Counted from the first letter of the stretch, positions 5,791 through 30,740 are shown. The stretch is 64,000 nt of DNA from a virus (IMGVR_UViG_3300027997_000002); one strand, 5' to 3'. Made by a program: numbers and translations. The notes: a model not told the origin generated them from the letters alone.

Positions 5791-6954
5791 ATGATGGTGG
5801 CCCTCATCCCACAGGCGCTCCTGACCGCGACCTTCGACGTCGAGGGCCACGACCGCAAGCAGGACTGGGGGACGCCCGACTGGTGTCTCAACGCCTGTCA
5901 CCGCGTGCTCGGCAAACCCTTCGGGATCGACCCGTTCGCCAGCCCCGAGCGCCTCATCAACGCGCGGGTCCACCTGTCACTTCCCACCGACTCCATCATC
6001 GTCCCGTGGAACGCTCCCTATCCAGACGTCGCGCCGCCGGAGACCTTCTTCGCCAACCCGAGCTTCGACATCCTCGACCGCGCGATCCCGAAGTGCTCCC
6101 AGGCCCACTACGAGGAGGGCCTCGACGGCATCGGTCTATGGCCCTGGCGCCATCACCGAAACTTCTGGGAGCCGGTGTGGTCCGCACACGCGCTCGCATT
6201 CTTGCCGGCCATCGAGTTCGTCGGGGCCGAGCACTCGGCACCGTTTGCCTGTGTCGCGGTCCTTTGGGGGCCCGAGCGAGTCCAGACCTTTATGGAGGTC
6301 TTCCGCAACTACTGTCACGTCGCGCGCATCTCGGACGGGCTCCTGGAGTTTTGGGAGCCCCACCGCCAGCTCGCGCTGCCGCTACCAAAGGAGAAACCCA
6401 TGGCCAAGAAAAAGAAGAACAACATCCAGCAGCGCCTGTTCGACGCGCAACGCGGCGTCCTCCTCGACATCTTCCGCGAGAACTCGTCGCTACCCTTCAA
6501 GGCGATCCTCGAAGAGATCGAGACGTGCTCGACGTCGGACCTGGGCGACGAGGTCGAGAAGATCCTGGCGACGATCCCGCTGCGCGAGCTGGTGATGCCG
6601 GAGGGGGCGATGGTCATCGCTGCCAGTCCCGTGGCCCAGGTCGTGGAGGGCGTCACGGCCGGTGTCCTTCAGGGGGCATACAATGCCGAGCCCAAGCCGC
6701 CGAAGAACGGCGCGCCCGCTCGCAAGAAGAAGCCGACAAACCGGGGCCGGCCGCCGGTGGGTGCGGTCGCGGAGTTCGACGACCTGGTCCTCAAAGTCGT
6801 CGGCCGTCACAAGAAAGGCCTCGGCCTCGACGAGCTCGTCGACAAGACCGAGGGGTCGGTCAAGCGAGTGCGTAGCTCGCTCGAGCGCCTGGTCAAGGGC
6901 GGCAAGGTCGAGAAGCAGGGTAAGACGAAGGGAGTCCGCTATGTCGTGGCTTAG
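5791..6954 (+). CDS. Phage Dam-like N6-adenine methyltransferase fused in frame to a basic winged-helix domain
   Basis: DWGTPDW, IDPFAS and FFANPSF (NPPF/Y variant) in aa 1-200; Lys-rich linker and wHTH C-terminus. Confidence 0.7.
   Translation: MMVALIPQALLTATFDVEGHDRKQDWGTPDWCLNACHRVLGKPFGIDPFASPERLINARVHLSLPTDSIIVPWNAPYPDVAPPETFFANPSFDILDRAIPKCSQAHYEEGLDGIGLWPWRHHRNFWEPVWSAHALAFLPAIEFVGAEHSAPFACVAVLWGPERVQTFMEVFRNYCHVARISDGLLEFWEPHRQLALPLPKEKPMAKKKKNNIQQRLFDAQRGVLLDIFRENSSLPFKAILEEIETCSTSDLGDEVEKILATIPLRELVMPEGAMVIAASPVAQVVEGVTAGVLQGAYNAEPKPPKNGAPARKKKPTNRGRPPVGAVAEFDDLVLKVVGRHKKGLGLDELVDKTEGSVKRVRSSLERLVKGGKVEKQGKTKGVRYVVA
6400..6954 (+). CDS. Possible nested in-frame product (MAKKKKNN..., nucleoid-like wHTH)
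   Basis: AAGGAG at 6388-6393 six nt before in-frame ATG 6400. Confidence 0.5.
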   Translation: MAKKKKNNIQQRLFDAQRGVLLDIFRENSSLPFKAILEEIETCSTSDLGDEVEKILATIPLRELVMPEGAMVIAASPVAQVVEGVTAGVLQGAYNAEPKPPKNGAPARKKKPTNRGRPPVGAVAEFDDLVLKVVGRHKKGLGLDELVDKTEGSVKRVRSSLERLVKGGKVEKQGKTKGVRYVVA

Positions 6955-7117
6955 AAGTCTGGTCAACGGGATCGGTAGACTTTGGTCAAGCATGGTCGAG
7001 TCCTTTGCTGGGCTCAGCGTTATCGCCATCATTGTGACCATCATCATGTTCGTCCCCGTCACGTGCCTGATGTTCGGGTCGGCCGCGGTCATCAGCGCGC
7101 TCAACTGTGGAGAGTGA
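6941..7117 (+). CDS. Small membrane protein
   Basis: One long hydrophobic helix. Confidence 0.5.
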   Translation: MSWLRSLVNGIGRLWSSMVESFAGLSVIAIIVTIIMFVPVTCLMFGSAAVISALNCGE

Positions 7118-7118
7118 G

Positions 7119-7412
7119 ATGTCCTATCGCACCGAACCACCCATTGGGCGCCAGGCGATGTTCGAGATCGACAACCTCGTCCGTGGGTACGACACGGCAC
7201 GGATGCGCCTGAGGGCCTTTTGCGAAGAGCCCGAGCTCGAGCTCATGGTCCAGGTCCGTCGAGAGAGTCGCAACCAACCCCGTGACGAGTGCTTTCCGTC
7301 TCCGGAGGTCTGCAGGACCATCACCGGTATCTGCAAGGAGTTCCTGCTCGGCGAGATGCAGGTTTACCGCACCAAGCTGGCCGAGTTCGGCGTCGACCCG
7401 GAGGCACCATGA
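7119..7412 (+). CDS. Hypothetical protein
   Basis: Coupled in operon. Confidence 0.55.
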   Translation: MSYRTEPPIGRQAMFEIDNLVRGYDTARMRLRAFCEEPELELMVQVRRESRNQPRDECFPSPEVCRTITGICKEFLLGEMQVYRTKLAEFGVDPEAP

Positions 7413-7849
7413 AGAACACCCAGCACGAGTTCATCCAGGGGTTCGCTATCACGATCCTGACGGTCGCGATGTCGGTGACCTTCCTGTTCTTCCTGTTCGG
7501 CTGTTTCGAGGACACCAGCGACCACGAGGTCAGCGGCACGACCAGCACGACATCGAGCAGCTCGTCGGGGTCCTCGGACGAGTCGACGTCGACCACCGGG
7601 ATCGACCCGTCAACATCCACTGGCTCCACGACCAGCTCGTCGACGAGCGAGACCGGCTCGGAGTCGACCGACGAGTCGTCGACCGGCGAGCCCGAGCACA
7701 CGTGCTGCGATATGACGATCTTCCCCGGCTGCGGTGACGCGATGATCGAGGCGTGCGTCTGCGCCGTCAGCGACTACTGCTGCGAGACCGCCTGGGACGG
7801 CGTCTGCGTTCAGACCGGCCAGGATCTCGGGTGCTTGATCTGCCCGTGA
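7409..7849 (+). CDS. Membrane/lipoprotein with Ser/Thr linker and Cys-rich myxobacterial-type repeat
   Basis: TM ending LFGC, S/T-rich linker, CCDMTIFPGCGDAMIEACVCAVSDYCCETAWDGVC. Confidence 0.7.
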   Translation: MKNTQHEFIQGFAITILTVAMSVTFLFFLFGCFEDTSDHEVSGTTSTTSSSSSGSSDESTSTTGIDPSTSTGSTTSSSTSETGSESTDESSTGEPEHTCCDMTIFPGCGDAMIEACVCAVSDYCCETAWDGVCVQTGQDLGCLICP

Positions 7850-7861
7850 TATGCTGGCCAC

Positions 7862-9388
7862 ATGCTCCTGGAGCCGAAGGACGTCAAGGGTATCAACGTA
7901 GGCATCAAGCCGAGCCCGCTCTTGTCCGAAGATCTGATGAAGGCTGCACAGGCTGGCAACCCATCGCTGTGGGCGAGCTCGCTTCAGGAGTCCGGAGGCA
8001 GCTGGAACGCCATCTCCCAAGGTCAGGCCGAGTACTGGGGGGAATCTCGAGCTGCACTTGCCGCGCGAGCCGCCGTCGCGTTCGGTGTCCCGAGTAACCT
8101 GCTCATTGAAGGTGCCCCGGTCAACTTTCTCGACGATGTAGTCGACTTCGCGATGACCACTCCTCTAGACGCGGCCCAGCTCGGCATCAAGTTCGCCCAG
8201 ATGGGCATCAGCATCGTCACGAAAGCGCTGTCACCGATACCCATCGTCGGATTGATCGCACAGGCCGTCGGCGGGATCGTCAACGTGATACTGGGGCTCA
8301 ACGAGAAGGATCCGATCGAACGCATGGAGGTGTTCCCCGAGCCGCAAGACTACGTGGACGCGATCGACGCGACCGTCGCCGAGACCGTGCGTATGCAAAT
8401 GAATGAGAGCGACTGGAATCGGCTGTTTGCTCCACGCTTCAAGTCGAGCTTCGAGAGCCAACGTCGCGGGGCAGAGGGCAAGCTCCTCATGTTCATTGGC
8501 ACCGAGTCATCCGACGGCATCGGTTACGTCCCCGGCACGCAGCGGATTATCGGCGGCGTCCAGGTCGGACCCATCGGCAACTCGGGCAGCGTTCAGACCA
8601 GGGCACAAAACCTCGGCGAGTGGTACCCGACCGCCGCGCAGCTCATGACAGCGATGTGGGGTCAGGTCAATGACCCTGGTCCCTATATGTACTTCGTGAA
8701 CGCGAACAAGGTGCGCGACACCTGGGACGACTACGTCTCGGCCGCGATCGAGTACGTCAACGATCATCTCACGCCGCGTGACGCCGGCGACGTCGCAGCG
8801 GGCGCCGCGTTCGCTGAAACCATCGAGGTCGCCGAGCTCAAGGCTGCGATACGACCGTTCTTCAAGGCCACGTTCGACTCGGGCTCCGGGTTCGCCCGGC
8901 AGGACCAGGACTACCGCGGTCTGCGACGCCAGACGATCTTTCAGGCCTACGTCAAACCGGCCATGAAGAAGTTGCGCCAGCGCCAGGAGCACTACCTCGG
9001 AAAGTTGACCTTGGCGTACATCGACCTCGAGGGCGCTGCGTTTCAGGACAAGGCGCTCAAAGCGAAGGCCATCGAGAATCGTAAGATCCTCCTCACGCAC
9101 CCGGCCCGCTTCGAGGTACGACTCTCGGACGTGATCGACTTGGAGTACCGGGCCGCGCTCGTGGACGCCGGCGTCAGAAAGATTCCTCAGATCCCAGGCG
9201 GATTCACAATCGCACCCAGGCCATTCGTCACGGGGGTCCCAGACGCCACACCTGGGCCGATCGAGGGCGGAGCTCCAGGCGCATTCCCCCCGGGGAAAAA
9301 GCGCAGGAACATCCTGCCGTACGTGGTCGTCGGCGCCGGACTCGGCTACCTGGGCTACAAGGCGCTCAAGCGCCGGCGTGTGCTGTAG
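7862..9388 (+). CDS. 508-aa putative virion/DNA-delivery protein with C-terminal TM anchor
   Basis: Internal amphipathic helix pair (aa ~105-145), Pro/Gly linker, C-terminal TM followed by KRRR. Confidence 0.6.
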   Translation: MLLEPKDVKGINVGIKPSPLLSEDLMKAAQAGNPSLWASSLQESGGSWNAISQGQAEYWGESRAALAARAAVAFGVPSNLLIEGAPVNFLDDVVDFAMTTPLDAAQLGIKFAQMGISIVTKALSPIPIVGLIAQAVGGIVNVILGLNEKDPIERMEVFPEPQDYVDAIDATVAETVRMQMNESDWNRLFAPRFKSSFESQRRGAEGKLLMFIGTESSDGIGYVPGTQRIIGGVQVGPIGNSGSVQTRAQNLGEWYPTAAQLMTAMWGQVNDPGPYMYFVNANKVRDTWDDYVSAAIEYVNDHLTPRDAGDVAAGAAFAETIEVAELKAAIRPFFKATFDSGSGFARQDQDYRGLRRQTIFQAYVKPAMKKLRQRQEHYLGKLTLAYIDLEGAAFQDKALKAKAIENRKILLTHPARFEVRLSDVIDLEYRAALVDAGVRKIPQIPGGFTIAPRPFVTGVPDATPGPIEGGAPGAFPPGKKRRNILPYVVVGAGLGYLGYKALKRRRVL

Positions 9389-9397
9389 ACTGGGGCC

Positions 9398-12305: not shown

Positions 12306-13877
12306 TTAGACCCAGACTGCGATCCAGTGCGCTACGCCGGCGACGTCGATCTCGACCCACTGGGCCTGAGCTGCTGCGGTGGGTCCAGCGCCACCGATGG
12401 TACCAAGGGTCGCGGCTGCTCCGCCACCGAGCGCGATGCCGTTGTTGATGTCGACGCGGCCGTCGAATCGTGAGAGTCCGCTGGAAACCCAAAGTGCCGC
12501 GTTCAAAGCGGTACCTTCCGTAGGAGCGTTCGCCACGATGAGCGTCGCTGCGTTCGTCACCGTACCGCCGCTTAGGGTGATGCCCGGTTCCACGAGCTGC
12601 ATCGTTGCGACGCGGCCCATCGCGTTGCCGGCGAGATCGACGTTGGCGCCCGGTGAGAAGAGGACGTCGAACCAGTCACCAGCGAGGTTGACGGTCCGGG
12701 CTCCCGGAGACCATGCGAGCCACCAGTTGGCGGTCCCGTCCGGGTTGAGGGCATCGCCGAAGACGAGTGTGGCCGCGGCGTCAGCCGCTCCGCTCGGCGA
12801 CCACTTGAAGCCGGCGCCGGTACTCGAGCTGAACTCGACCACGTTGGCGGTGGCCTGGACGTCCATGTCGATGCCCTCGTTGTTGGCACCGCCGACTCCG
12901 ATGAATCGGGCGACCCCAGCTGAGGAGCGCAGGAGCTCGACCCGGTTGCCGGCGACGGTGCCCAGCACGAGGCTGACGCCGTCGTTCATGTGAATGTCGC
13001 CCGCGAAGGTCGAGATCGCCACGCCGGCCTGGCGGATGAACGTCCCCACCGCCATCGCCGAGTTGATGCCGCGCAGTGTTGTGATGCCAGCCGCAGGGAT
13101 GGCCGGGAAGTCGATGAGGTTGAGCGTGCCGATCGTGCCGCCGGCCGTGAACGACGGGGCCTTCGGCGCAAAGTAGTTGACCAGCAAAATCGTCGCGGCA
13201 CCTACCGACGCGTTGACGATCGCCGTGCAAAACAACGCCTCGTGCGACGTGACCGTGATGCTGCCCGCGATATTGGGCCCTACGCGAAGCTGCGAACGAA
13301 CGGCATTTTGCTGCGCGACAGTCCGAGCCCCGCCGGCCGGCCCTGTACGCAGGAGCGGCTGATTGATCAGCGTGTAGATCGGCCCGCTGTTGGCGCCCTC
13401 GCAGGTGATGATCGTGCCCTGCGTGAATAGGCTTTGCGTGTTGAACAGGTTGCCCTGATCGGTGACGATGCACTCGCCGGCCCACGCCACGAAGTTGGGC
13501 GCAGTGTCATTGCCGATCCCGCCGCCGCCAGGGATCGCGGTTGTTACGCTCGACGTCCACGAGAACGCAGCCCCGTCGGTCCCTATCGTTGTTTGCGTGC
13601 CGCCGTCCGGCATGTATACCGCGCTGCCGTAGCTCGTCGGATCGTCGATGAAACTCCACACGCGCCGCGCCGACGGGCCCCAGTCCATCACGGCCGGGGA
13701 GTCCGGATCGATCGCGAATACCGTGTCGGGGGTGTTGTCCCGAATGCGGAAGACGTTGCCGATCGGCGCGGCGTTGTCGACGACGGTCAGCGGGCCGATC
13801 GCGGGGTCGACCGTAATGGTGCCGTCGCCGCTGATGTCGTACGCGAGTTGCAGCGGCGTGATCTTGATGGCGCCCAT
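12306..13877 (-). CDS. Putative spike/receptor-binding protein (beta-helical, Gly/Ala/Thr-rich)
   Basis: 523 aa, low charge, beta repeats, C-terminus ...QWVEIDVAGVAHWIAVWV. Confidence 0.65.
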   Translation of the reverse strand: MGAIKITPLQLAYDISGDGTITVDPAIGPLTVVDNAAPIGNVFRIRDNTPDTVFAIDPDSPAVMDWGPSARRVWSFIDDPTSYGSAVYMPDGGTQTTIGTDGAAFSWTSSVTTAIPGGGGIGNDTAPNFVAWAGECIVTDQGNLFNTQSLFTQGTIITCEGANSGPIYTLINQPLLRTGPAGGARTVAQQNAVRSQLRVGPNIAGSITVTSHEALFCTAIVNASVGAATILLVNYFAPKAPSFTAGGTIGTLNLIDFPAIPAAGITTLRGINSAMAVGTFIRQAGVAISTFAGDIHMNDGVSLVLGTVAGNRVELLRSSAGVARFIGVGGANNEGIDMDVQATANVVEFSSSTGAGFKWSPSGAADAAATLVFGDALNPDGTANWWLAWSPGARTVNLAGDWFDVLFSPGANVDLAGNAMGRVATMQLVEPGITLSGGTVTNAATLIVANAPTEGTALNAALWVSSGLSRFDGRVDINNGIALGGGAAATLGTIGGAGPTAAAQAQWVEIDVAGVAHWIAVWV

Positions 13878-16510: not shown

Positions 16511-16796
16511 GCTTCAACTCGCACTCGCGCTCGGGATGCTTCTTGCGATAGTGGTGGACCATGTCCTTGTAGGTCAGCTTGCAGATCGGGCACACGGCAG
16601 TGCGCTCGTAGAACCAGTCGCCGTCACCTTGGTCCGAGTCGGAAATGTTGCCCATGCCACCCTCGTCGTGACTGGACCGGTCCCGGCCGAGGGACGCGCG
16701 GCTCACTGCCGTTCCAGTGTTACTCGAGACCCCAACCTCGCCAGGATCGAGCTGGCAAAGCATGCAGTTCGCAGGGTCCTTGCAGATGCAGCTCAC
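16455..16796 (-). CDS. Cys/His Zn-finger protein
   Basis: CIC...C..C and CPIC...HYRKKH; overlaps amidase 3' end convergently. Confidence 0.45.
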   Translation of the reverse strand: MSCICKDPANCMLCQLDPGEVGVSSNTGTAVSRASLGRDRSSHDEGGMGNISDSDQGDGDWFYERTAVCPICKLTYKDMVHHYRKKHPERECELKLKLRRPGPRGATARSSST

Positions 16797-17482
16797 ACCA
16801 TACCGAGCGCAGCTAGAGAAACGGTCCCACGGCGCGTGACGACGATGTGATCGAGCACGGGCACGCCCATGACTCGCCCTACCTCTACCAATCGACTCGT
16901 TAGCCCGATGTCCGCCTCACTCGGCTCCGGATCGCCAGAGGGGTGGTTGTGGGCAATGATGACCGAGTGTGCGCCGAGCTTGACGGCGTCGCGAAAGACC
17001 TCGCGCGGGTGTACGTCGACCTGGGCGAGCGACCCCATGCCAACCTGGAGCACGTCGATGACTTTCTGGCGTCCGCTCAGCAGGATAACCACGAAGCTCT
17101 CCTGCTCGTTGCGGCCGAGGATCCGACGCAAGAAGCGCGAGACATCCTGCGGCTCCCGCAGGTGCGTCCCGCGGGCGAGGACCTCGCAGTTGGCGTCGCA
17201 GATGTCGACCAGGGTGAACGCGGCCCTCAGGCGCCGGGCTTGGAGTGCGGTGGCTCCGAGCTCGCGGAAGCCGGCTTCTGTCGTTTGGGCGAGTCCGCGG
17301 CCGGAGGGGTGGGACTCGAGGAGACGCTTGGCGGTCTTCTCGCTGACGCCTGTCACGTCGCGAAGTGCTTGCATGGCCTCGTTCGCCGGTGGTAGCAGCG
17401 AGCGTTTGACGTTGCGCTTGAGCGCACGCTTGAGCCTACTGGCCCGGTTGATGCTGATGACGGCTTGCTTGCGCTTGGCCAT
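16793..17482 (-). CDS. radC: RadC-family JAB-domain protein with HhH N-terminus
   Basis: QESF, HPREVF, AHNHPSGDPEPSEAD, LDHIVV. Confidence 0.9.
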   Translation of the reverse strand: MAKRKQAVISINRASRLKRALKRNVKRSLLPPANEAMQALRDVTGVSEKTAKRLLESHPSGRGLAQTTEAGFRELGATALQARRLRAAFTLVDICDANCEVLARGTHLREPQDVSRFLRRILGRNEQESFVVILLSGRQKVIDVLQVGMGSLAQVDVHPREVFRDAVKLGAHSVIIAHNHPSGDPEPSEADIGLTSRLVEVGRVMGVPVLDHIVVTRRGTVSLAALGMV

Positions 17483-17502
17483 GGCGTCGATGGTACCAGG
17501 GG

Positions 17503-19315: not shown

Positions 19316-19581
19316 GACGCCACGAGCGGCGCGTCTCCGCCACCCTTGAGGGCGGCCTGGGCTGTGACGTGCGCCTCGATGTCGACGACCACATCGCCGA
19401 GTAGGTCGGTGAGGTGATGCGAGGCCTCGTGGGCTTCCGTGATGCTCGCGTCAACCGTATCTTGCCACCCTTCGATACCACCGGGGGCATCGGGGGTGAG
19501 GGCCATATCGAGCTGCTTCTTGATTTTGTCGGCGTGGTCGCGCGCCTGGGAGAGCTTGACGAGGGCGAGTGCGTATCTCAT
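19312..19581 (-). CDS. Helical hypothetical protein
   Basis: Coupled in operon. Confidence 0.55.
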   Translation of the reverse strand: MRYALALVKLSQARDHADKIKKQLDMALTPDAPGGIEGWQDTVDASITEAHEASHHLTDLLGDVVVDIEAHVTAQAALKGGGDAPLVAS

Positions 19582-20450
19582 TCCGAACCCTCCGCCGCCG
19601 CTGCCGGCTCGGCCTCTGCCTTGGGCTGCCCCATCACGACGGCCAGGTCAGCCTCCAGTGCCTTGACCACCTTCTTCATCTGCTCGGCCGTGATGTCAGC
19701 CGGCCACTTCTCGAGTCCGAGTACCTGCTGCGTCAGCATCCCGCGCTTGGTCTTGAAGTGGGCCTCCTCCGACACGCTGGATACCTGGGCGTGCATGCGC
19801 TTGGCCCACTCGTGCAGCAGGCCACCGAAGACCTCCTTGGCCTTGGTCAGCTCCTTGTCCTCGGGCGCCGGCGCCGGCTCGGCGGTCGTCACGAACGTGT
19901 TCTCGTCCTGGCTGACCTCCTCGGCCGTGACCTCGCCGAAGCCGACCAGGTTGGAGATCGCGCGACCTCGAGCTCGCGTGTGCGCATGCGCTCGGACGTT
20001 GTGGACGGTGGCCTGCTTGGCGCTCTTGACCACGTCGATCATGGGCTGACCGTCCTTGTCGAGCGTGACGGTGGGTTTGCGGTTGTGCCAGGTCTTTTGG
20101 TAGACGAGCTTCTCGCTGCGGAAGCAGGCGCCATCACCGTACGCCTCGCGTCTGCCGCCGACGGCTTTGTAGACCACGCAGTAGCCCCAGTCCTCGCCGT
20201 GGTCCTCACGGCGCTCCTCGACGAGCACACACTCGACGCCCAGGGCGACGGCGACGGCGGCCCAGTACTGCTTTTTGCGAAACGGCTTGCCGTCGAGCGT
20301 GACGAGGCACTGCGGTAGCTCGGCGTCGAGGGCCTTTTGGAGCTTGGCGTACTCCCTGATCTGGGTGATGACGTGGTCGACGGCTCCGGCTTGGATCGTG
20401 GCGACGTTGTCGAGGGAGGTGTCTTCTTTCTTCGCGATTTCGGCGGTCAT
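19578..20450 (-). CDS. Putative ssDNA-annealing recombination protein (Rad52/Red-beta-like)
   Basis: AHTRARGRAISNLVGFGEVTAEE followed by low-complexity linker and helical C-domain; RBS GGAG. Confidence 0.55.
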   Translation of the reverse strand: MTAEIAKKEDTSLDNVATIQAGAVDHVITQIREYAKLQKALDAELPQCLVTLDGKPFRKKQYWAAVAVALGVECVLVEERREDHGEDWGYCVVYKAVGGRREAYGDGACFRSEKLVYQKTWHNRKPTVTLDKDGQPMIDVVKSAKQATVHNVRAHAHTRARGRAISNLVGFGEVTAEEVSQDENTFVTTAEPAPAPEDKELTKAKEVFGGLLHEWAKRMHAQVSSVSEEAHFKTKRGMLTQQVLGLEKWPADITAEQMKKVVKALEADLAVVMGQPKAEAEPAAAAEGSE

Positions 20451-20641
20451 CTTCTCTCCATTCCCTTGCAGTTGGGACATTGCACTCGGTGCAGGTGCGC
20501 AACCTCGAGGAGGGCCTTGTCGAGCACTCGGCACGTCCGAAACTTGTTCGACAGTTCCTTATGCTGGGCTCTGGCCCCGATGTAGAACGAAGCGATCGCG
20601 ATCACGACCGCAGCGACGTACGCTACGAGCACGTTGTCCAT
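20447..20641 (-). CDS. Small single-TM protein with CPNC
   Basis: N-terminal hydrophobic helix. Confidence 0.5.
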   Translation of the reverse strand: MDNVLVAYVAAVVIAIASFYIGARAQHKELSNKFRTCRVLDKALLEVAHLHRVQCPNCKGMERR

Positions 20642-20689
20642 TCCGTCTGAGCAGCGTCGCGCGAGCTGGGGGAGCTGTCAAGCGTGCGC

Positions 20690-21658
20690 CTAGGCGGCCA
20701 CTTTCGCCTTCCAAAACCGCACCTTGGTCTTGACCGATCCGCGACCCCGCGGGCCCGGGTGCGTGATGAAGCCGAGCTGGCCCTTGCGCGCGAGGCCCTT
20801 GCGCTCCAGAGCGCGCAGCGCGTTCGTGACCTGGGCTGAGCTGAGCCCCGACTCCTTGACGAGATCGCCCCCGGCGAGACCTGTGGCGATGCGTCCCTCG
20901 CGGAGCGTATGGTCGCGGTACCGCATGAGGAGACCGAGGACGAGCGCCTCGCGGTCCTCCTTGAGCATCGTCGACTCCCTGGCCTTGCGCTTGCTCTTCT
21001 TCTTGCGCTTCGGGTTTGCGAGTGTCCGGATCCGGCGTGCCTCGTCGCGGATGTCGTCGTCCGTCCATCCGGAGGCTACGGGATCGAGCCGCGCTTGTCC
21101 GAGCTCGCGACGATGACGATTGATAAGGTCGAGGTCGGGCCGCGCAGCAGGCGTCACCTTGCGAGCTGCACTCTTGGTCTTCATCGCATAAAACCATCCG
21201 TTCGGACTACCGTGCGGCTTCCAAGGATCGAGGACATAGAGGCGCCAGTACTTGGAGCCGACCGCATCGGGCACCTTGACGAGCGTGTAGCCGGCGTTGA
21301 GCGCATCCTTGGCCGCGTCAACGTCATCGTAGTCGTCGGGCGCTCCTTCGTCGTCCCGCTGCGGCGTGAAGTCGAGTTCGTCGAAGTTCCCGATGATGCC
21401 GCGTGCCTGAAGCTCCTCGTGGATTGCGTTGTCGTAGCCGGCCTCGACGTTGAAGACGTCCCAAACGCGAGGAACGGGTCTCTCGAGCAGACCACCATCG
21501 ATGACAGTCATGTACTTGGGGGTCGTGCGGTAAAGGTGCATGCGGATACAGTCGCGCCCACGACATCCGCGGAGGATCTCGAAGTCCTTCGCGGCCTCGA
21601 CCCCTCGGCGCGTCCACTTCGGATTCCGGCTCAATCGCGCTCTTCGACTTGTGCCCAT
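20690..21658 (-). CDS. Modular NP-motif protein with C-terminal winged helix
   Basis: MGTSRRARLSRNPKW start, internal LANPKRKKKSKRK linker, wHTH ending. Confidence 0.7.
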   Translation of the reverse strand: MGTSRRARLSRNPKWTRRGVEAAKDFEILRGCRGRDCIRMHLYRTTPKYMTVIDGGLLERPVPRVWDVFNVEAGYDNAIHEELQARGIIGNFDELDFTPQRDDEGAPDDYDDVDAAKDALNAGYTLVKVPDAVGSKYWRLYVLDPWKPHGSPNGWFYAMKTKSAARKVTPAARPDLDLINRHRRELGQARLDPVASGWTDDDIRDEARRIRTLANPKRKKKSKRKARESTMLKEDREALVLGLLMRYRDHTLREGRIATGLAGGDLVKESGLSSAQVTNALRALERKGLARKGQLGFITHPGPRGRGSVKTKVRFWKAKVAA

Positions 21659-22221: not shown

Positions 22222-22257
22222 AAAAAAAAGCCCCCGGGGGCGAGACCTCCCGGGGGC
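22222..22257 (-). terminator. Intrinsic terminator
   Basis: 9-bp stem GCCCCCGGG/CCCGGGGGC (22230-38/22249-57), 10-nt loop, U8 tail on minus strand. Confidence 0.85.
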
Positions 22258-22311: not shown

Positions 22312-22518
22312 TCACCGTACCACGGCAGTGCGTCCGCGTGCGTTGATCTTGACGTCGACCGCGATCACCTTGCAGCCCTGGTCGTTGCAGTCGAATACGC
22401 GCTTGGCCTGGACATAGCCGAGGCGCACGAGTCCGTAGGCTGTGTTGGCCTTGTTGGTCCGGAACCAGCCGCGAGCTTGCGCGCAGTTGTTCAGGAGACG
22501 CTGCTGTGCTGGGCTCAT
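22312..22518 (-). CDS. Small winged-helix-like protein
   Basis: MSPAQQRLL...LVRLGYV...INARGR. Confidence 0.55.
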   Translation of the reverse strand: MSPAQQRLLNNCAQARGWFRTNKANTAYGLVRLGYVQAKRVFDCNDQGCKVIAVDVKINARGRTAVVR

Positions 22519-22922
22519 CGACGCACCCTCCGGAACCGGATCGGGGCGTGGAGCGTGTGCTCGATCTCTCCGCGCTCGACGAGATCCCACATGGCCTTGG
22601 TCATGTTTGGACCCGCGACGTCGGCCGTGTAGTCGTACAGCGTGACCGAGATATGGTTGAAGGTCTGGGCGCGGCCGTCGGCAAGGTACGCGAGGATCTC
22701 CACCTCAAAGCCGGCCGTCGGTCGTGCGTGCTGCTTCTTCCACTTGGCGATGACGTAGTCCCCTCGACCTGGGCGAGCCGAGCGCTCGGGGTCCCCCATC
22801 GAGCGGATCATGTGCGTGTAGCCCTCGCGTTGATCCCTCGGGACCGGGTAGCCACTAGCCCAGCCGTCGACGTGCTGGGAGTCGAGCGCTGCGATCTCCG
22901 AGCGTGTGTGGTCTGCTCTCAT
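22515..22922 (-). CDS. Hypothetical protein with C-terminal wHTH-like segment
   Basis: EILAYLADGRAQTF...KAMWDLVERGEIE. Confidence 0.55.
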   Translation of the reverse strand: MRADHTRSEIAALDSQHVDGWASGYPVPRDQREGYTHMIRSMGDPERSARPGRGDYVIAKWKKQHARPTAGFEVEILAYLADGRAQTFNHISVTLYDYTADVAGPNMTKAMWDLVERGEIEHTLHAPIRFRRVRR

Positions 22923-23848
22923 TGCTTGCCTTCCATGATGCTGTTGACGTGATCGCGATAGGTCTCGGCGACGCCCTGGTCGTTTTGAGCGTGGTTGCCC
23001 GCCCGGCCACCGGTGGCGCCCTTGGCCTCCTCAGGCGCCCGCCTGGCGGCGTAGCTCCACGCAAGCGAGTCGGAGCTTGCGATGTACGGAGCGGCGTAGC
23101 GCAGCGCCTGTGCGCCCAGGCCGAACGCGTGGAGCCCGAGCCCGCCCTGGACTCCCGCCAACTCGCGAAGGATCTCGACGGGCTCCCGGACGCTCTTGCG
23201 CCGGCAGATGGAGCCGACGCCCACGCGCTGCATGTCGCCAAGGATGACGCCGGCGTCGCGGTACATCTCGACGTGGTGCATGTAGTCGCCAAGCTCCCAG
23301 CCTTGCAGCACGGGCAACCAGTGGACCTCGGGCGCCATCGCGAAGAGCGTCCGGAAGTTGTCGACCGTGCGGCGCTGGTGCTCGGCGATGGTCAGGCCGG
23401 TAGCACGCAGCGCCGTCTCCTCGCACATCCAGTCCTGGATCGACACCCAGCCGATCGTCCCCAGCTCGCGCTGGTACCTCAGGACCTCGTCGACGAACGC
23501 CTCGGGGCTCACGGTCCAGCGTCCGTGCTGGTGCAGCTCGGTGAATCCTCCGCTGTCGACGTAGACGGGGACCGTGGCCTTGGGGTAGGCGGTGATCCGC
23601 CGGCGGATCTGGCGGATGCTCAAAAACAGGGGGCCCTGGGCGTCCCCGGCGAACGCCCAGTGCGGCCGATGGGTCCCGAGGATGAATCCCTCGTCGGACT
23701 CGTCGAGCCACGGGCACGGTCCCCCCTGGTGCTTGCCCCAGCGGTCGTACCAGAGATCGGGGACCTCGGCGCAGTCGGCCGGGTCGTGGACGAGCCCGTG
23801 CTCGTCCTCGAACGCCTCGATCGCTTCGCGTGTATCGTCGCTATGCAT
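22919..23848 (-). CDS. DpdA-like (TGT-fold) 7-deazaguanine DNA transglycosylase
   Basis: LGTHRPHW, DSGGF, QDWMCE, PVLQGW, VGVGSICRR, LHAFG, SSDSLAWS. Confidence 0.75.
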   Translation of the reverse strand: MHSDDTREAIEAFEDEHGLVHDPADCAEVPDLWYDRWGKHQGGPCPWLDESDEGFILGTHRPHWAFAGDAQGPLFLSIRQIRRRITAYPKATVPVYVDSGGFTELHQHGRWTVSPEAFVDEVLRYQRELGTIGWVSIQDWMCEETALRATGLTIAEHQRRTVDNFRTLFAMAPEVHWLPVLQGWELGDYMHHVEMYRDAGVILGDMQRVGVGSICRRKSVREPVEILRELAGVQGGLGLHAFGLGAQALRYAAPYIASSDSLAWSYAARRAPEEAKGATGGRAGNHAQNDQGVAETYRDHVNSIMEGKQ

Positions 23849-24146
23849 GCGTCTGCCTGCGCCGCAGCGTTCCGTGTTTGCGTGCGGCTTCCCACAGTGT
23901 ATGGCGCGAGACCCCGAGCGCGCGAGCTAGCTCCCCGATCGGCATGTCGGAGACACGGACCGCCTCGGCGAGTCGCTTCAGGTTGAACCCGCGGCCCGGT
24001 CGCGGGCCCTTGGGTCGCATCACGCCGGCGCGTGAGACCGCACGCCCCGCGATCGTGGCTGAGCGCCCGCATAGCTCGGCCGCTTGCTGGAGAGTCTTGC
24101 CGCCGGTGTAGAGCCGGACGATCTCCGCGTGGACTTCCGCGCTCAC
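23841..24146 (-). CDS. Tandem HTH DNA-binding protein
   Basis: LYTGGKTLQQAAELCGRS and IGELARALGVSRHTLW; GTGA overlap with sigma gene. Confidence 0.7.
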   Translation of the reverse strand: MSAEVHAEIVRLYTGGKTLQQAAELCGRSATIAGRAVSRAGVMRPKGPRPGRGFNLKRLAEAVRVSDMPIGELARALGVSRHTLWEAARKHGTLRRRQTHA

Positions 24147-24664
24147 GCGTCCGCTCCCACGGTCTCGCGCAGGCCGGCCACGACATCCGTGCGCCAGCGT
24201 GACGCCGTCGCGATGCTCACGCCCCGGCGCTCTGCCAGCTTGGAGATCCCCCCGTACTCGTACGACGTGACCAGGTCGCGCCAGGCCTTCCCGGTTGCCA
24301 AGCTGGCGACGCCGAGATCGTGCGCCAGCTCGAACACTTCGTCGGCGCGCCTGGGGTCGACGATCCGCTCGGTGTCGCGCTCGTCCTTGATCAACCGCTC
24401 GGAGTTGCGCCCGGCTCGCGTGCCCGTGATGCCGCGCCGGTGGTCTCGCATGGCGCCGTCGATCCGCCGGGCCGCGAATGCCCACAGCGTGACGCCCCGG
24501 TTCGGCTCGAACCGTGTGCGCGCCTCGGCGAGCGCGAGGAGCCCGACGGCTGCCAGCTCGCGGGAGTCGGCGCCGATGTCGGTCCAGCGCTGGGCATGGT
24601 GGTACGCGAGCCGCTCGACGCGGCGCACGTGCCATGGGTGAACAGTCCTGCTCATGGTCGTCAT
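24143..24664 (-). CDS. Minimal sigma-70-family (FliA-like) sigma factor
   Basis: Region 2 ELAAVGLLALAEARTRFEPNRGVTLWAFAARRIDGAMRDHRR; region 4 ISKLAERRGVSIATASRW. Confidence 0.8.
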   Translation of the reverse strand: MTTMSRTVHPWHVRRVERLAYHHAQRWTDIGADSRELAAVGLLALAEARTRFEPNRGVTLWAFAARRIDGAMRDHRRGITGTRAGRNSERLIKDERDTERIVDPRRADEVFELAHDLGVASLATGKAWRDLVTSYEYGGISKLAERRGVSIATASRWRTDVVAGLRETVGADA

Positions 24665-24667
24665 GGG

Positions 24668-24721
24668 TTCCATCCTTCTTGCAGCGTCATGCCGCACGCT
24701 GAGGGCTCGCACGGTGCGTCC
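24668..24721 (-). promoter_or_regulatory. Conserved leader module, copy 1 (sigma gene)
   Basis: GGACGCACCG...GGCATGACGCTGCAAGAAGGATGGAA before ATG. Confidence 0.75.
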
Positions 24722-24735
24722 CCCAGCGGGCGCCG

Positions 24736-25092
24736 TCACGCTCCCGCGTCCCCCTCCGCCATCGCCACGACGCCGCACGGGGCGTCGTCCCCCACGATCT
24801 CGAAGGGCTCGACTAGGTCGGCCATCATGGACAGCGCCAGCGCTACCTCGCGCATGTAGTCGTCGTCTGGCATGCGTGCGGCGCCCGTCAGCCAGACGCC
24901 CAGGTCGTACGACGCGAACCGGATCGCCTCGTCGTCGTCGACCAGCACGCCGCAGTTGTCGCAACGTTGGATCTCCAGGCCGCGCTCGCCGGAGTCGCAC
25001 GGCATGTAGCCCAGGCGGTGACACTCGTCGCACGCATCCTCGCGCCGTTGCATGGGGATGCCGACGGCGGTCGGTTGCTTCGCCTTGGCCAT
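24736..25092 (-). CDS. Zn-finger protein
   Basis: CDEC...CDNC. Confidence 0.55.
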   Translation of the reverse strand: MAKAKQPTAVGIPMQRREDACDECHRLGYMPCDSGERGLEIQRCDNCGVLVDDDEAIRFASYDLGVWLTGAARMPDDDYMREVALALSMMADLVEPFEIVGDDAPCGVVAMAEGDAGA

Positions 25093-26018
25093 CACATCGC
25101 CTCCCGTACCTGCGTGGCGATCCACTCGCCCACGGCCGGCGGCACCGCATTGCCGAGCCCGCACACGACGTCGCCCCGCGTGGCGTCGTCTGGCCAGCCG
25201 TAGCTATCCGGGAAGCCCATCGCCCTGGCGTTCTCGCGGAGCGTCAGGGGCCGGTACATGCGACCACGCACGACGGCCCATTGATCCTTGGTGGTGATGG
25301 TCCGGATCGGTTCGTCGAGCCCGACGCCTGGGTGGTTGCTGACGTGCTGCGTGATGAAGCGGTCGCCATGGCGCTTGCGTCCGTTGGCGATCCGTCGACG
25401 CACGGCAGCCGACGCTCCGGTGATGGGGCGCCAGTTGCCAGCGCGCCAATCGATGCACGGCCCGAAGGCGGGCTCACGGCCGCGTGGAGCCTCGACCCGC
25501 AAGGCGCCCCGGTCACGCAGCCCGACAATGAACAGCCGCCTGCGGCGCTGTGGCACGCCCAGGCGGGACGCTGTGACCACATGCTCGGAAAGCGAGTAGC
25601 CCAGATACTGCAGGCAATCGCGCCACTGTGGATAGAGACGCCAGCGTCGGAAGGCTGGCACGTTCTCCACGACGATCGCCCTGGGCTCGGTCACGTCCAC
25701 GCAGTCGACGATCGCCCAGGCGGTTGCACGCAGCGCGTCGTGCTTGCGTCGCGTCCGTCCGCTCGCGGCCCGGCTCGGCTGTGCCGCGCTGCTGTGGCCC
25801 TGGCACGCTGGCGCGGCCAGTAGCAGATCGTACTCGGGCAGCGTCGCCCAGTCGCACTGCCGCAGATCCTGGCACGCATGCGTGGTCCGGGGATGGTTCT
25901 GAGCGTGAGCCTCGACCGCGAACGGCCAGTGGTTGGCGGCCCACGCAACCCGGCAGCCCGCACGCTCGGCGCCGAGCGTGAAGCCACCGAGCCCCGCGAA
26001 CAAGTCGACGGCGATCAC
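25092..26018 (-). CDS. dcm: DNA (cytosine-5)-methyltransferase
   Basis: DLFAGLGG (I), APACQGHS (IV, PC variant), ENV (VI), QRRRRLF (VIII), LGNAVPP (X). Confidence 0.92.
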   Translation of the reverse strand: MIAVDLFAGLGGFTLGAERAGCRVAWAANHWPFAVEAHAQNHPRTTHACQDLRQCDWATLPEYDLLLAAPACQGHSSAAQPSRAASGRTRRKHDALRATAWAIVDCVDVTEPRAIVVENVPAFRRWRLYPQWRDCLQYLGYSLSEHVVTASRLGVPQRRRRLFIVGLRDRGALRVEAPRGREPAFGPCIDWRAGNWRPITGASAAVRRRIANGRKRHGDRFITQHVSNHPGVGLDEPIRTITTKDQWAVVRGRMYRPLTLRENARAMGFPDSYGWPDDATRGDVVCGLGNAVPPAVGEWIATQVREAM

Positions 26019-26446
26019 GACAGGGCCTCGGGATCGATCTCGGTGTGATGTTCGTCCGTGAGCGTCGAGCGTCCGTCTAGCTCGCATAGGGCGTCCGATA
26101 CCTCGTGAGCCCAGCACGTGATGCTGTGGATCTGGCGCTTGCGTGCTGTGCTGAACACAAGGCCCAGCGTGGTGGCAAGGTGGATCAGAGCGTCGCGGTC
26201 CGCTTGCTCCGACTGTGCGAGCCGGCCCAGCGGTACGGCGATTGTGTCGACGGGCTCGGCGGGACCGTGCAAGCCGTCAGGGTCGCACGCAAGGCAACGG
26301 CAAACGCCGCTGTACAGGCTGCGGCGTGCAGCGTTCAGCGTGCATTCACCACAGCGGCAGATGTGGCCGTACGTGTGCCAGCGTTCGGCGCTCCAATCCT
26401 TCGCGGCGATCGGCGGCGTTGTGTTGCCAAATGGGTCGTGTGCCAT
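26015..26446 (-). CDS. Cys-rich hypothetical protein
   Basis: CRCGEC...CRCLAC. Confidence 0.55.
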   Translation of the reverse strand: MAHDPFGNTTPPIAAKDWSAERWHTYGHICRCGECTLNAARRSLYSGVCRCLACDPDGLHGPAEPVDTIAVPLGRLAQSEQADRDALIHLATTLGLVFSTARKRQIHSITCWAHEVSDALCELDGRSTLTDEHHTEIDPEALS

Positions 26447-26455
26447 GCCTCCGTG

Positions 26456-26507
26456 TCCATCCTTCTGCAGCGTCATGCTGCCACCTGCCGGCTCGCGCGG
26501 TGCGTCC
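26456..26507 (-). promoter_or_regulatory. Conserved leader module, copy 2
   Basis: GGACGCACCG...GCAGCATGACGCTGCAGAAGGATGGA. Confidence 0.75.
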
Positions 26508-26822: not shown

Positions 26823-27103
26823 TCTCGCCCCCAGGGGGGCCCTTTCTCGCCCTGGCCAGCGTGGGGGCGAGAATCCTCACGCCAGGGCGAGAATCCCGCA
26901 GCGTGGCCTGAGAGCCAACACGCGCCCCGCTGAGCGGTTTTTCTCGCCCTGGTATAACGGTGCGTCCAGGGCGAGAAAACCCCACCTGAGGGATCCGGCC
27001 CCCCAGCGTGGGCTATCTCGCCCTGTACGGCCAGCGCGATCGCGTTCTCGCCCCGGGGGCCCCATAGCGTCCAGAATCTCGCCCTTTTGTTTTCTCGCCC
27101 TGG
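26823..27103. repeat. Array of 10 TCTCGCCC octamers in a divergent intergenic region, including a perfect 14-bp inverted repeat
   Basis: Forward at 26823, 26845, 26942, 27016, 27046, 27077, 27093; reverse at 26865, 26885, 26969; IR 26939-52/26966-79 around TATAAC. Confidence 0.9.
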
Positions 27104-27158
27104 GGCTGGTAGCTTGAGCGTGGGGCCGGTTTCGCCGGCTCCAGAAGGATGGACCCTC

Positions 27159-27884
27159 ATGCCAGGATACGTGCTCTACCGCGGACCGTCGTTGCTGGAC
27201 GGTTCGCCGATCGTGGCCATCGCCACGACGGACAGTCGCAACCGGAAGACCGGCGACATGATTCAAGTGTGGATCCTGCCGGCCGACATGTCCCCCGTCG
27301 AAGCCGTACACGCCGGGCTCGACGACAGCGTCTGCGGCGATTGCTCGCTTCGCGGCACCACGCAGGACGGCAGCAACGTCGGCCGCACCTGCTACGTGCG
27401 AGTCTTCCATGGACCGCTCAGCGTCTACAAGGCATGGCGGCGCGGCCGGTACCCCGAGCCCGCGCTGCACTGGCTGGCTGACCTTGCGTCCGGTCGACAC
27501 GTGAGGCTCGGCGCCTACGGCGATCCGGCCGCGGTACCCCGCGCCGTGTGGGAGCGTCTGCTCACCTACGCGGCGGGCTGGACCGGCTACACGCACCAAT
27601 GGCGGACCGGGCTCGCGATGGCCGATCTGTGCATGGCCAGCGTGGAGACGGACAGCGACGCCGCCGAGGCTCGCGCCCTGGGCTACCGGGTGTTTCACGT
27701 CACGCAAGGCGCCGAGCCTCGGCGCGAGGGGTACATGGTCTGCCCGGCCAGCGACGAGGCGGGCCACCGCCTGCAGTGCGACGAGTGTGGAGCGTGCGCC
27801 GGCACCAGCGCCGCCGCTCGGTCCAACGTCCAGATCGCGGCCCATGGCAGCGGCAGGGTCCACCTGCAGGTGGTGGCGGCGTGA
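27159..27884 (+). CDS. Conserved Cys-rich phage protein (GP88-like), first gene of rightward early operon
   Basis: NRKTGDMIQ, CGDCSLR...CY, RLGAYGDPAA, GYTHQW, CPAS...CDECGAC; preceded by GAAGGATGGA at 27144-27153. Confidence 0.7.
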   Translation: MPGYVLYRGPSLLDGSPIVAIATTDSRNRKTGDMIQVWILPADMSPVEAVHAGLDDSVCGDCSLRGTTQDGSNVGRTCYVRVFHGPLSVYKAWRRGRYPEPALHWLADLASGRHVRLGAYGDPAAVPRAVWERLLTYAAGWTGYTHQWRTGLAMADLCMASVETDSDAAEARALGYRVFHVTQGAEPRREGYMVCPASDEAGHRLQCDECGACAGTSAAARSNVQIAAHGSGRVHLQVVAA

Positions 27885-28943: not shown

Positions 28944-28986
28944 CGTCGCGGTGCCTACGGCTCGGGAGCCCAGCTCGCGCGCCGTG

Positions 28987-29014
28987 GGCAGCATGACGCT
29001 GCAAGAAGGATGGA
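28987..29014 (+). promoter_or_regulatory. Conserved leader module, copy 3
   Basis: GGCAGCATGACGCTGCAAGAAGGATGGA six nt before ATG 29021. Confidence 0.75.
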
Positions 29015-29020
29015 CAGGCA

Positions 29021-29371
29021 ATGACCGGACACAGATGGCACCACGGGCCCGAGCTTCGCAGGACCCACCACTCCCTCGGCATGGACGACAAGAAGGGCCG
29101 CGCGATCGGTGCGATCGTCGTCGTGCGCATTGTAACGGTCGTCGAGAGCGGGGGCTACCGCAACCGCGAGGCGGACGCTCTGCCCATTGGCACGGAGTCG
29201 GTCAGCGTCTGCATCACGGCCGCGCGCCGCGGCCTGCCGTTCGGAGCCTCTCAGAACTCGAAGCGCATTGGCCCCCCGGGTGCCGCGACGGACGCCAAGG
29301 TCAAGGCGGAGATCGAGCGCCGCATCGCGTCCATGACCACGCGCTACCGCAAGCAGTTCGGAGGTGCGTGA
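29021..29371 (+). CDS. Hypothetical beta-sheet protein
   Basis: Follows leader module. Confidence 0.6.
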   Translation: MTGHRWHHGPELRRTHHSLGMDDKKGRAIGAIVVVRIVTVVESGGYRNREADALPIGTESVSVCITAARRGLPFGASQNSKRIGPPGAATDAKVKAEIERRIASMTTRYRKQFGGA

Positions 29372-29604
29372 TGGCGACCCCCGAACATCCCGAGTGGGTG
29401 CGCGAGCCCATCACGATAACCGACGCGGACTACCGAGCCGCCCGCAATGGCAACCTGGGCCTGTGCCTGGAGTGCGGCGCCGAGCGTGGCGGCTGCGAGC
29501 CAGACGCGCGACGCTACTACTGCGAAGCGTGTGAAGGCTCCGCGGTCTACGGCATCGAGGAGCTGCTCATGATGAACCTGCTCAACATCGTGGAGGAGGC
29601 CTGA
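29371..29604 (+). CDS. Small Zn-ribbon phage protein
   Basis: GLCLECG...EPDARRYYCEACE...VYGIEELL. Confidence 0.65.
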   Translation: MATPEHPEWVREPITITDADYRAARNGNLGLCLECGAERGGCEPDARRYYCEACEGSAVYGIEELLMMNLLNIVEEA

Positions 29605-29607
29605 GCC

Positions 29608-29967
29608 ATGAAAGCCAACCTCAACCGCATGATCTTCGAGTTGGAGGGCGCTCTCACACTGGCGCGCCAGCTCCCGACCGACCTCGACCACAAGGAGCTG
29701 ACCGACGCTCGCATGGCCGTGATCGGCCAGCGTCTCAACCGGGCCACCAAGGGCTACAACGCGCTCGGCGAGGAGCTGGACGACCGCGTCAATGCCCTCG
29801 ACCCACCAGTGGCACCGGTGGACGCGGACGCCTGGCGCGAGGGCGACGTCAACTGCCCGGGCTGCGATTCGAACGAACCGCTGGTGACCGAGACGCTCTA
29901 CGGTGGCCGCATGACGCAGCTGCGTTGCAGCAACTGCGGCCATGCGGGGGAAGAGGGCTCATGCTGA
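29608..29967 (+). CDS. Coiled coil + Zn ribbon protein
   Basis: CPGC...CSNC. Confidence 0.55.
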   Translation: MKANLNRMIFELEGALTLARQLPTDLDHKELTDARMAVIGQRLNRATKGYNALGEELDDRVNALDPPVAPVDADAWREGDVNCPGCDSNEPLVTETLYGGRMTQLRCSNCGHAGEEGSC

Positions 29968-30740
29968 CCCCAGTCTGCCAACGATGGCGCGCGGGCCGAG
30001 ACAGCTACCGGCCGGCGCGCGAGACCATCCGCACCGCGGACTACGAGGTCGCACGCATCGACACCGACCGCGTGGCCAAGTCGTTCGTGCTCGCGCATCA
30101 CTATAGTGGGACGTACCCGGCGTCGCGCTTCCGCTTCGGGCTCTACCAGCGCGAGCTGGTCGGCGTCGCCGTCTTCGCCGTGCCTGCGCAGCCCCGATGC
30201 CTCGACGTGCTCCCGGGCGACCGCATGACGGGCGTCGTGCTCGGGCGCTTCGTCCTCGTCGACCAGGTCCCCGCCAACGGCGAGTCCTGGTTCATCGCGC
30301 GCTGCTTCGAGCTGCTTCGCGACGCTGGCATCACCGGCGTTGTCTCGTTCTCCGATCCAGCCAGGCGCACGTCCGCATCGGGCGACGTCGTGTTCGGTGG
30401 TCACGTAGGGACCATCTACCAGGCCACCAACGCGCGGTACCTCGGGACCTCCAAGGCCGAGCGTCGCTGGCTGCTACCGGACGGACGCGTGCTCGACCCA
30501 CGTGCGCTGTCGAAGATCCGCCGGCGCGACCAGGGCTGGCGGTACGCTGCGGCCCAGCTCGAAGCGTTCGGCGCGAGGCCCTTACGCAAGCAGGAGCCGC
30601 GAGCGTGGCTCGACCGCTGGCTCGAGCGCTTGTGCCGACCGCTGCGTCACCCGGGCAATCACAAGTACGCGTGGGCCCTGCAGCGTCGCGACCGACGGCA
30701 TCTGCCGGCGAGCCTCCCGTACCCGAAGGTGGTGGGCTGA
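29961..30740 (+). CDS. mom: Mom-family adenine modification (GNAT-like) enzyme
   Basis: HHYSG, LGRFVLVDQVPANGESWF, VVSFSDP, GHVGTIYQATNARYLG. Confidence 0.85.
   Translation: MLTPVCQRWRAGRDSYRPARETIRTADYEVARIDTDRVAKSFVLAHHYSGTYPASRFRFGLYQRELVGVAVFAVPAQPRCLDVLPGDRMTGVVLGRFVLVDQVPANGESWFIARCFELLRDAGITGVVSFSDPARRTSASGDVVFGGHVGTIYQATNARYLGTSKAERRWLLPDGRVLDPRALSKIRRRDQGWRYAAAQLEAFGARPLRKQEPRAWLDRWLERLCRPLRHPGNHKYAWALQRRDRRHLPASLPYPKVVG

Follow-up and report, generated by a model that had tools for sequence, protein, structure and literature searches.

The 64,000-nucleotide stretch analysed here (the window) is part of the 75.6-kb viral contig IMGVR_UViG_3300027997_000002 and carries, between positions 5791 and 30740, genes for enzymes that are predicted to modify or repair DNA. 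Our gene searches cover this 64-kb window, and about 11.6 kb of the contig lies outside it. Because the GC content of the window is 62–71% (about 65% for the element), spurious open reading frames (ORFs) are plentiful, and genes were selected by codon-position GC bias together with profile searches (Pfam, PHROG). A preliminary description of this DNA had assigned to it four independent writers of DNA modification, acting on cytosine, adenine (twice) and guanine, and an intact AlkB eraser. By codon-position bias and profile matches, all five ORFs proved to be present and intact:

5791–6954, plus strand: Dam-like N6-adenine methyltransferase domain (residues about 20–180, motif IV NPSF), to which a Lys-rich linker joins a C-terminal winged helix (EutK_C-like); phrog_111 at 1.6e-6, EutK_C at 3e-5
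18169–18981 (ORF to 19041), minus strand: AlkB-family Fe(II)/2-oxoglutarate (2OG) dioxygenase with HxD...H and RxNxTxR motifs and with Ser at the position of D135 of E. coli AlkB (EcAlkB); PF13532 at 7.8e-48, PDB 3khc at 4.5e-33
22919–23848, minus strand: singleton DpdA (DNA-guanine transglycosylase family); PF23859 at 3.3e-55, phrog_1279 at 6.5e-61
25092–26018 (ORF to 26117), minus strand: orphan C5-cytosine DNA methyltransferase; PF00145 at 1.8e-42, phrog_116 at 1.3e-69
29961–30740 (ORF from 29925), plus strand: Mom-family DNA adenine modifier of the GNAT fold; PF25680 at 5.4e-23, phrog_1384 at 2.8e-29

We favour, with moderate confidence, the view that the window belongs to an uncultured high-GC (65%) virus-like element of bacteria in which these genes provide a multi-enzyme DNA-modification set against restriction; such a role is what the set as a whole most naturally suggests. 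Because the stacking of several DNA modifications is already known as a way in which phages escape restriction, an arsenal of this kind is in itself no surprise. It has three unusual features, namely a virus-borne AlkB with what appears to be a natural specificity switch, a singleton DpdA without its zinc site, and Com-like zinc-ribbon ORFs before two of the modification genes. Family membership and conserved catalytic residues are seen directly in the sequence, and the activities, targets and timing given below are predictions made from them.

Predicted cytosine and adenine modification

Modification of cytosine by the C5-methyltransferase is well supported by the protein sequence. It scored 146.3 bits against PF00145 (cut-off 22) and 123 bits against TIGR00675 (cut-off 100.65), motifs I to X are intact (DLFAGLGG for FxGxG, APACQG, VENVP, PQRRRR, RENARAMGFP and GNAVPP), and the catalytic Cys aligns with C81 of M.HhaI. 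The start codon is probably GTG 26018, which fits the N-termini of homologues and overlaps the upstream ORF 26015–26476 as GTGA. In motif IV, Pro-x-Cys stands in place of the canonical Pro-Cys; this form is typical of the phage subfamily of the enzyme and is common to its closest phage relatives, from Acidovorax phage Acica (49%), Pseudomonas phage SS2019XI (44%) and mycobacteriophage Omnicron (37%). Because Pro-x-Cys is used across the subfamily, we rejected the idea that Ala-Cys in motif IV is a defect. Profile scans of neighbouring ORFs recognised no nuclease partner beside either the C5-methyltransferase or the Dam-like gene, and we therefore regard the former as an orphan methylase, whose product would be 5-methylcytosine at a short motif. 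ORF 26015–26476 was considered as a Vsr-like repair partner and gave no family match in Pfam or PHROG.

Mom-type modification of adenine is likewise well supported. The start at ATG 29961 was upheld, and the protein scored 82.1 bits against PF25680 (cut-off 27.1). Mom of phage Mu takes glycine from Gly-tRNA and attaches it to the N6 position of adenines in double-stranded DNA, and the adduct then rearranges to 6-NcmdA (PMC13219725, 2026). Its activity depends wholly or almost wholly on R111, S124, D149 and R151, and H58, Y59, Y159 and W181 also matter for it (PMC13219725). When the window protein was aligned to Mu Mom (8BV8), equivalents of H58, Y59, R111, S124, D149 and Y159 proved to be kept and conserved in seven relatives encoded near DpdA genes. 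Because this subfamily has an invariant D-P-x-x-R, the Arg equivalent to R151 is placed at D+4 instead of D+2, a displacement of two residues. W181 is not kept, its counterpart being a Val in a part of the alignment that is of low confidence. The protein has a basic helical insert, a candidate counterpart of the helix-turn-helix-like insertion that Mu Mom needs for activity. We expect the window enzyme to carry out Mom-type N6-adenine modification using glycyl-tRNA. The presence of Mom alone is ordinary, because more than 8,000 homologues occur in viromes.

Both adenine-modification genes are preceded by a zinc-ribbon ORF:

29608–29967, plus strand: zinc-ribbon ORF of 119 amino acids, ending in CPGC-x19-CSNC; overlaps the Mom start as ATGCTGA
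5515–5790, plus strand: small CxxC-x15-CxxC zinc-ribbon ORF; abuts the start codon of the Dam-like gene, with weak Zn_ribbon matches in Pfam

The two ORFs resemble the com–mom arrangement of phage Mu, in which Com is the activator of mom translation. At the Mom gene the likeness to the Mu pair takes in PF25680, the six key residues and an overlapping upstream CxxC...CxxC ORF. The differences are a very low identity between the two Mom proteins (phmmer E = 0.0027), the shifted Arg and the lost Trp, the position of the window gene in an apparently early operon whereas Mu mom is a late terminal gene, and the 119 amino acids of the upstream ORF, which has an extra N-terminal part unlike Com.

For the other adenine gene, which had been described as a Dam-like N6-methyltransferase, the assignment is supported by a modelled fold and by a remote relationship to PF05869. 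An exhaustive profile-free search gave 157 relatives, and 29 of the 40 that were aligned match PF05869, the best at 1.9e-34. This family comprises small phage methylases of the GATC type, among them the enzymes of T1, HP1 and VT2. The window protein keeps W-x-T-P, DP and N-P motifs in the same order as the W-x-T-P, (L/I)DP and N-P-x-(Y/F) of the phage Dam family, and shares with it a catalytic domain of ~170 amino acids and the N6-adenine methyltransferase fold. An AlphaFold (AF2) model built on the alignment of the relatives had an N-domain pLDDT of 86 and a pTM of 0.79, and its best Foldseek hits (probability 1.0, TM 0.45–0.48) were PCIF1/CAPAM, RlmJ and PacII M, with MmeI and type I M subunits also among them. 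Two observations tell against the assignment: the protein itself lies below the Pfam threshold, with no Pfam methyltransferase match at E <= 0.01, and its motif IV is NPSF rather than NPP(Y/F), the second Pro being at least 90% conserved in relatives. NPSF is shared by a 52% identical relative, and the long form with Lys-rich linker and winged helix also occurs in the relatives P0009–P0013. A PDB sequence search with the protein gave no match. Hia5-type non-specific methylases were rejected as relatives, being of the Dam/D12 lineage with DPPY and not of PF05869. On sequence and model together we consider the protein probably active, and it would then make N6-methyladenine (m6A).

A viral AlkB with Ser at the D135 position

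The AlkB gene gave a strong family match, and its probable start at ATG 18981 yields a protein of 270 amino acids, like that of its 94% identical relative P0157. About a third of the core is identical to EcAlkB (group 1A), and alignment to this enzyme (motifs HVD, YHAVH, RLNLTIR and LGWW...GYRY) showed that H131, D133, H187, R204, R210 and W69/Y76-type aromatics of the lid are kept, so that the two proteins are alike in their Fe(II)/2OG ligands, 2OG-binding arginines and lid aromatics. The NCBIfam equivalog cut-offs for AlkB are not reached (157 against 267). In contrast to EcAlkB, the window protein has Ser at the D135 position and a Cys-rich N-terminal extension of ~80 amino acids (ORF residues 21–100, CxxC...CxC), which only P0157 shares, other homologues being ~200 amino acids long. 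The closest clade (P0157–P0161, 51–94% identity) is found entirely on short metagenomic contigs.

At the D135 position Ser or Thr is present throughout a six-member clade made up of the window AlkB and its five closest relatives, and Asp in the other 111 motif-matched sequences among the best 120 homologues. Two AlkB-like homologues of IMG/VR viruses (L011:2127–2708 and L012:8001–8657), which were retrieved with patterns that do not cover the D135 motif, also have Ser there; one of the two contigs is a complete genome of 70.8 kb with terminal repeats. In EcAlkB, D135 selects adenine and cytosine via their exocyclic amines, and D135A shifts activity to 1-methylguanine (1-meG or m1G; PMC2800194). 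The wild-type enzyme prefers 1-methyladenine (m1A) and 3-methylcytosine (m3C), the engineered D135S and D135T variants gain demethylation of m1G and still remove m1A and m3C, and activity on m6A was reported for D135I (PMC7968990). Because its Ser corresponds to these D135S/T variants, the window AlkB is predicted to be a broadened repair enzyme and not an m6A eraser, and by its residues it looks like a group-1A-like repair enzyme. Repair of alkylation and editing of the virus's own m6A had both been suggested for it; the first is favoured by these features, and the second is left without support. Its most likely task would be to reverse methyl lesions at N1 of purines and N3 of pyrimidines in single-stranded DNA or RNA of the virus, and given the Ser its substrates may include m1G.

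Some of these lesions may arise from off-target action of the methylases that the virus itself encodes. A by-product of DNMT-type enzymes is 3mC, which ALKB2 repairs, and DNMT and ALKB2 co-evolve (PMC9246332). Against such a pairing in viruses stands a complete 70.8-kb viral genome with terminal repeats, which carries a related AlkB and has no C5, N6_N4 or D12 methyltransferase; because of this genome an AlkB–methylase link cannot be taken as general. An obligate partnership of AlkB with viral methylases was considered, and two other viral genomes gave it no support. In plant viruses (Flexiviridae; PMC2553587), AlkB domains are known to repair the viral RNA and offer a precedent for a viral AlkB acting on viral nucleic acid, whereas the carrier here would be a double-stranded DNA virus of bacteria, where AlkB is rare (a tblastn search of 50,697 phage records gave no homologue). 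The viral D135S/T clade could show how heavily self-methylating viruses handle collateral alkylation, and its members are possible natural enzymes for demethylation-assisted tRNA sequencing.

A singleton DpdA without the zinc site

The gene at 22919 had been taken as a guanine writer. Its identity as DpdA holds: the protein scored 187.6 bits against PF23859 (cut-off 27), and the catalytic aspartates are kept. In bacterial DpdA, D95, D130 and D256 are the general acid/base, base-binding and nucleophile aspartates (PMC10164549); their equivalents in the window protein, D98 (DSGGF), D139 (QDW) and D260 (SDS), are invariant in alignments, and the same strict conservation extends to the base-binding QG/GVGS loops. 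Comparison with the DpdA of the related locus L001 gave a dN/dS of 0.12, which indicates purifying selection. A PDB sequence search with DpdA returned no match.

Guanine exchange is the weak part of that claim. A structural Zn site (CxCx2C...H) is described as conserved in DpdA and in tRNA-guanine transglycosylase (TGT) (PMC10164549), and all ligands of the form that it takes in this subfamily (C-x-H-x2-C-x2-C) are replaced in the window DpdA. Searches with tblastn for the preQ0 genes, using QueC, QueD, QueE and FolE of Rosebush, gave nothing below E = 1 in the 64 kb, and preQ0 families were absent from Pfam scans of about 65 window ORFs. Moreover, the nearest tested relative is the DpdA of Mycobacterium phage Orion, which is 41% identical and as close as any phage relative, and Orion DNA contains no 7-deazaguanine (PMC6884629). 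All three points weigh against a guanine mark on the viral DNA. Salmonella phage 7-11, which also has a singleton DpdA, has only 0.02% dADG, and Hutinet et al. treat the ‘singleton DpdA’ phages as a group of unknown modification status (PMC6884629). The window DpdA is like those of this group (group 3 of Hutinet 2019, with Orion and Salmonella phage 7-11) in that no FolE, QueD, QueE or QueC was found and the catalytic aspartates are kept. It differs in two respects: Orion DpdA keeps a Cys/His zinc knuckle, which the window DpdA and its closest metagenomic clade have lost, and the probable host of the window element is a proteobacterium able to make preQ0, unlike that of Orion. Guanine exchange by the window DpdA would depend on preQ0 or a related base from the host, and the step may be a minor or a different one.

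The loss of the zinc site is not peculiar to the window. All ligands are also lost in the L001 DpdA (95% identical) and in ~25 of the best 120 homologues, and the Zn-less proteins (including P0281–P0298; region 22919–23060 in the window) share an N-S-Q...A-E-x-Y-R segment instead. At least two zinc-site Cys are kept in Orion DpdA and in 142 of 145 classifiable loci, and we did not find a description of a sizeable metagenomic Zn-less clade in the DpdA literature. It is possible, though we hold it only tentatively, that this clade of singleton DpdAs exchanges another base, acts on RNA or binds DNA without catalysis, so that the virion would carry marks only on cytosine and adenine. Such a role would suit the unmodified DNA of Orion, the frequent absence of every Zn ligand, and the setting of the genes. 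Among 160 related DpdA loci (L013–L172, mostly actinobacterial chromosomes and IMG/VR contigs, inspected within a radius of 10 kb) only one has que genes nearby; most genomic carriers are actinobacteria, and Mycobacterium smegmatis, the one actinobacterial host with evidence, is without the preQ0 pathway (PMC6884629). It fits less well with the strictly kept Asp triad and QG/GVGS loops and with the trace of dADG in Salmonella phage 7-11, and the low dN/dS argues for an enzyme. A Zn-less DpdA clade that is under purifying selection and nearly always without preQ0 genes sharpens the question of what singleton DpdAs do.

A broader proposal joins AlkB with the methylases, and we regard it as speculative and rather doubtful: bacterial viruses would own an AlkB lineage with natural Ser or Thr at position 135, which here serves as a broad proofreader, removing methyl lesions at purine N1 and cytosine N3 that replicating viral DNA receives from the virus's methylases and from the host (a writer-plus-proofreader module). 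As a separate matter, singleton DpdAs of the Zn-less clade may insert a base that is not of the preQ0 type.

Next to DpdA lies one further gene:

22515–22922, minus strand: small ORF of 135 amino acids; ATGA overlap with DpdA (translational coupling), conserved in L001, no family match

The C-terminal part of this ORF is winged-helix-like by eye. We rejected it as a QueD-like partner of DpdA on account of that appearance and of the missing Pfam or PHROG match.

Transcription units and modification islands

Two more features belong to the unit of the C5-methyltransferase and DpdA:

24143–24700 (start uncertain, within ORF 24143–25150), minus strand: sigma-70-family factor, regions 2 to 4; PF04542 at 2.3e-9, TIGR02937 over residues 175–328
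22222–22257, minus strand: GC-rich hairpin with T-run at the end of the C5-methyltransferase/sigma/DpdA unit

The operon layout follows from the stop–start codon overlaps at the C5-methyltransferase and Mom genes and from the terminator. From a divergent control region, a leftward early unit would run through the orphan C5-methyltransferase, the sigma factor that lies between it and DpdA, the singleton DpdA and the small coupled ORF to the terminator, and the next leftward unit would carry AlkB and RadC. Rightward, an early unit would contain the zinc-ribbon ORF coupled to the Mom-type enzyme, upstream of a primase and a helicase, and the Dam-like methylase–winged-helix fusion would belong to a separate cluster on the plus strand. 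The enzyme set would thus be spread over early transcription units and serve restriction evasion. A sigma gene frameshifted between ORFs 24143–25150 and 23841–24635 was considered and rejected, since ORF 24143–25150 alone spans regions 2 to 4. The overlapping ORF 23841–24635, which has HTH (helix-turn-helix)-like matches, is probably spurious.

In the same 160 loci a C5-methyltransferase occurs within 10 kb of DpdA in 28, always on the same strand (28 of 28) and frequently at a distance below 1 kb. Mom is near DpdA in seven loci, both enzymes together in one, and AlkB in none. Because DpdA, C5-methyltransferase and Mom are linked in this way, we regard the writers as recurrent partners in modification islands and not as four independent acquisitions; the gene identities put forward earlier hold, and their independence has to be given up. 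The linkage suggests a recurrent DpdA–C5-methyltransferase module, mainly in actinobacterial prophages. The window is like such islands of temperate actinophages and prophages (DpdA with a C5-methyltransferase, Mom or both) in having orphan enzymes without nucleases, on one strand and in early regions, and differs from them by the added AlkB and by the DpdA without a Zn site.

The chromosomal setting of related DpdA/C5-methyltransferase/Mom islands, presumably in prophages, raises the question of whose DNA is served. If the methylase, Mom and AlkB altered or protected the DNA of a lysogen, they would provide alkylation tolerance or epigenetic regulation to the host and not a shield to the virion, and the bacterial group-1A type of AlkB would agree with this. 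We consider it unlikely. The genes lie within long early operons beside a sigma factor, a primase and a helicase and are not isolated morons at a prophage end, and untimely expression of mom is toxic and tightly prevented in Mu (PMC3378877).

Equally improbable, in our judgement, is the full form of the preliminary description, in which all four writers act on virion DNA (on cytosine, twice on adenine and on guanine) and AlkB erases or edits viral m6A. In its favour, none of the five proteins is disrupted and all are under selection. Alphaproteobacterial hosts normally make preQ0 and preQ1 for queuosine, and a host could supply the singleton DpdA with substrate, a possibility that Hutinet et al. 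raise for phages of this kind. Set against this are a singleton DpdA without a Zn site, whose nearest tested relative leaves its DNA unmodified, the NPSF of the Dam-like motif IV, and an AlkB whose Ser135 is that of the m1G-gaining variant and not of the m6A-active D135I, the wild-type preference being for m1A and m3C. A layered epigenome on three bases was therefore an overstatement: cytosine and adenine are well supported, guanine is weak, and the second adenine writer has a non-canonical motif IV.

Carrier element and host

Nucleotide searches of 50,697 phage records and 72,556 plasmid records gave no match to the window. Profile scans identified an ATPase of the HerA/FtsK type, a primase of the RepB type, a helicase, RadC and an M23 peptidase, and they recovered no capsid or tail hallmark and no tailed-phage hallmark gene in the window, which speaks against a viral identity. 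FtsK/HerA ATPases serve DNA packaging in tailless membrane-containing viruses. At the head of the rightward early unit stands a gene of a virus-only family:

27087–27884, plus strand: DUF7227/GP88 protein; phrog_2554 at 3.2e-73

This family, which is without known function, has 152 phage records and is 96–100% viral in the Atlas. That the element is instead a plasmid or an integrative conjugative element, with the enzymes as leading-region anti-restriction functions, would fit the replication and ATPase genes and the missing hallmarks, but is very unlikely in view of the absence of any match among 72,556 plasmids, the almost purely viral DUF7227/GP88 family, the packaging role of HerA/FtsK-type ATPases in tailless viruses, and the phage origin of the best named relatives of DpdA, Mom and the C5-methyltransferase. 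The favoured virus-like element is possibly a large virus without a tail, in which case hypermodification chemistry would extend beyond tailed phages.

Because the nearest cellular relatives of AlkB are from Rhizobiaceae (44–49% identity) and the best relatives of the DUF7227 protein are from roseophages (~50% identity), the host is probably an alphaproteobacterium.

Other features of the window

Downstream of AlkB, in one leftward transcription unit with it, lies the RadC gene:

16793–17599, minus strand: RadC-like JAB domain protein; PF04002 at 6.7e-39

ORF 19578–20534 (minus strand), which has a weak match to DUF3164 (Mu-like phage), shares the AlkB transcription unit. Two large ORFs, 7862–9388 (plus strand, 508 amino acids) and 12306–13877 (minus strand, 523 amino acids), have no Pfam or PHROG match. 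The relative L001, which is 84% identical, is without ORF 20690–21658 (322 amino acids, weak MarR-like match), an indel between close relatives in the region of window positions 20646–21635.

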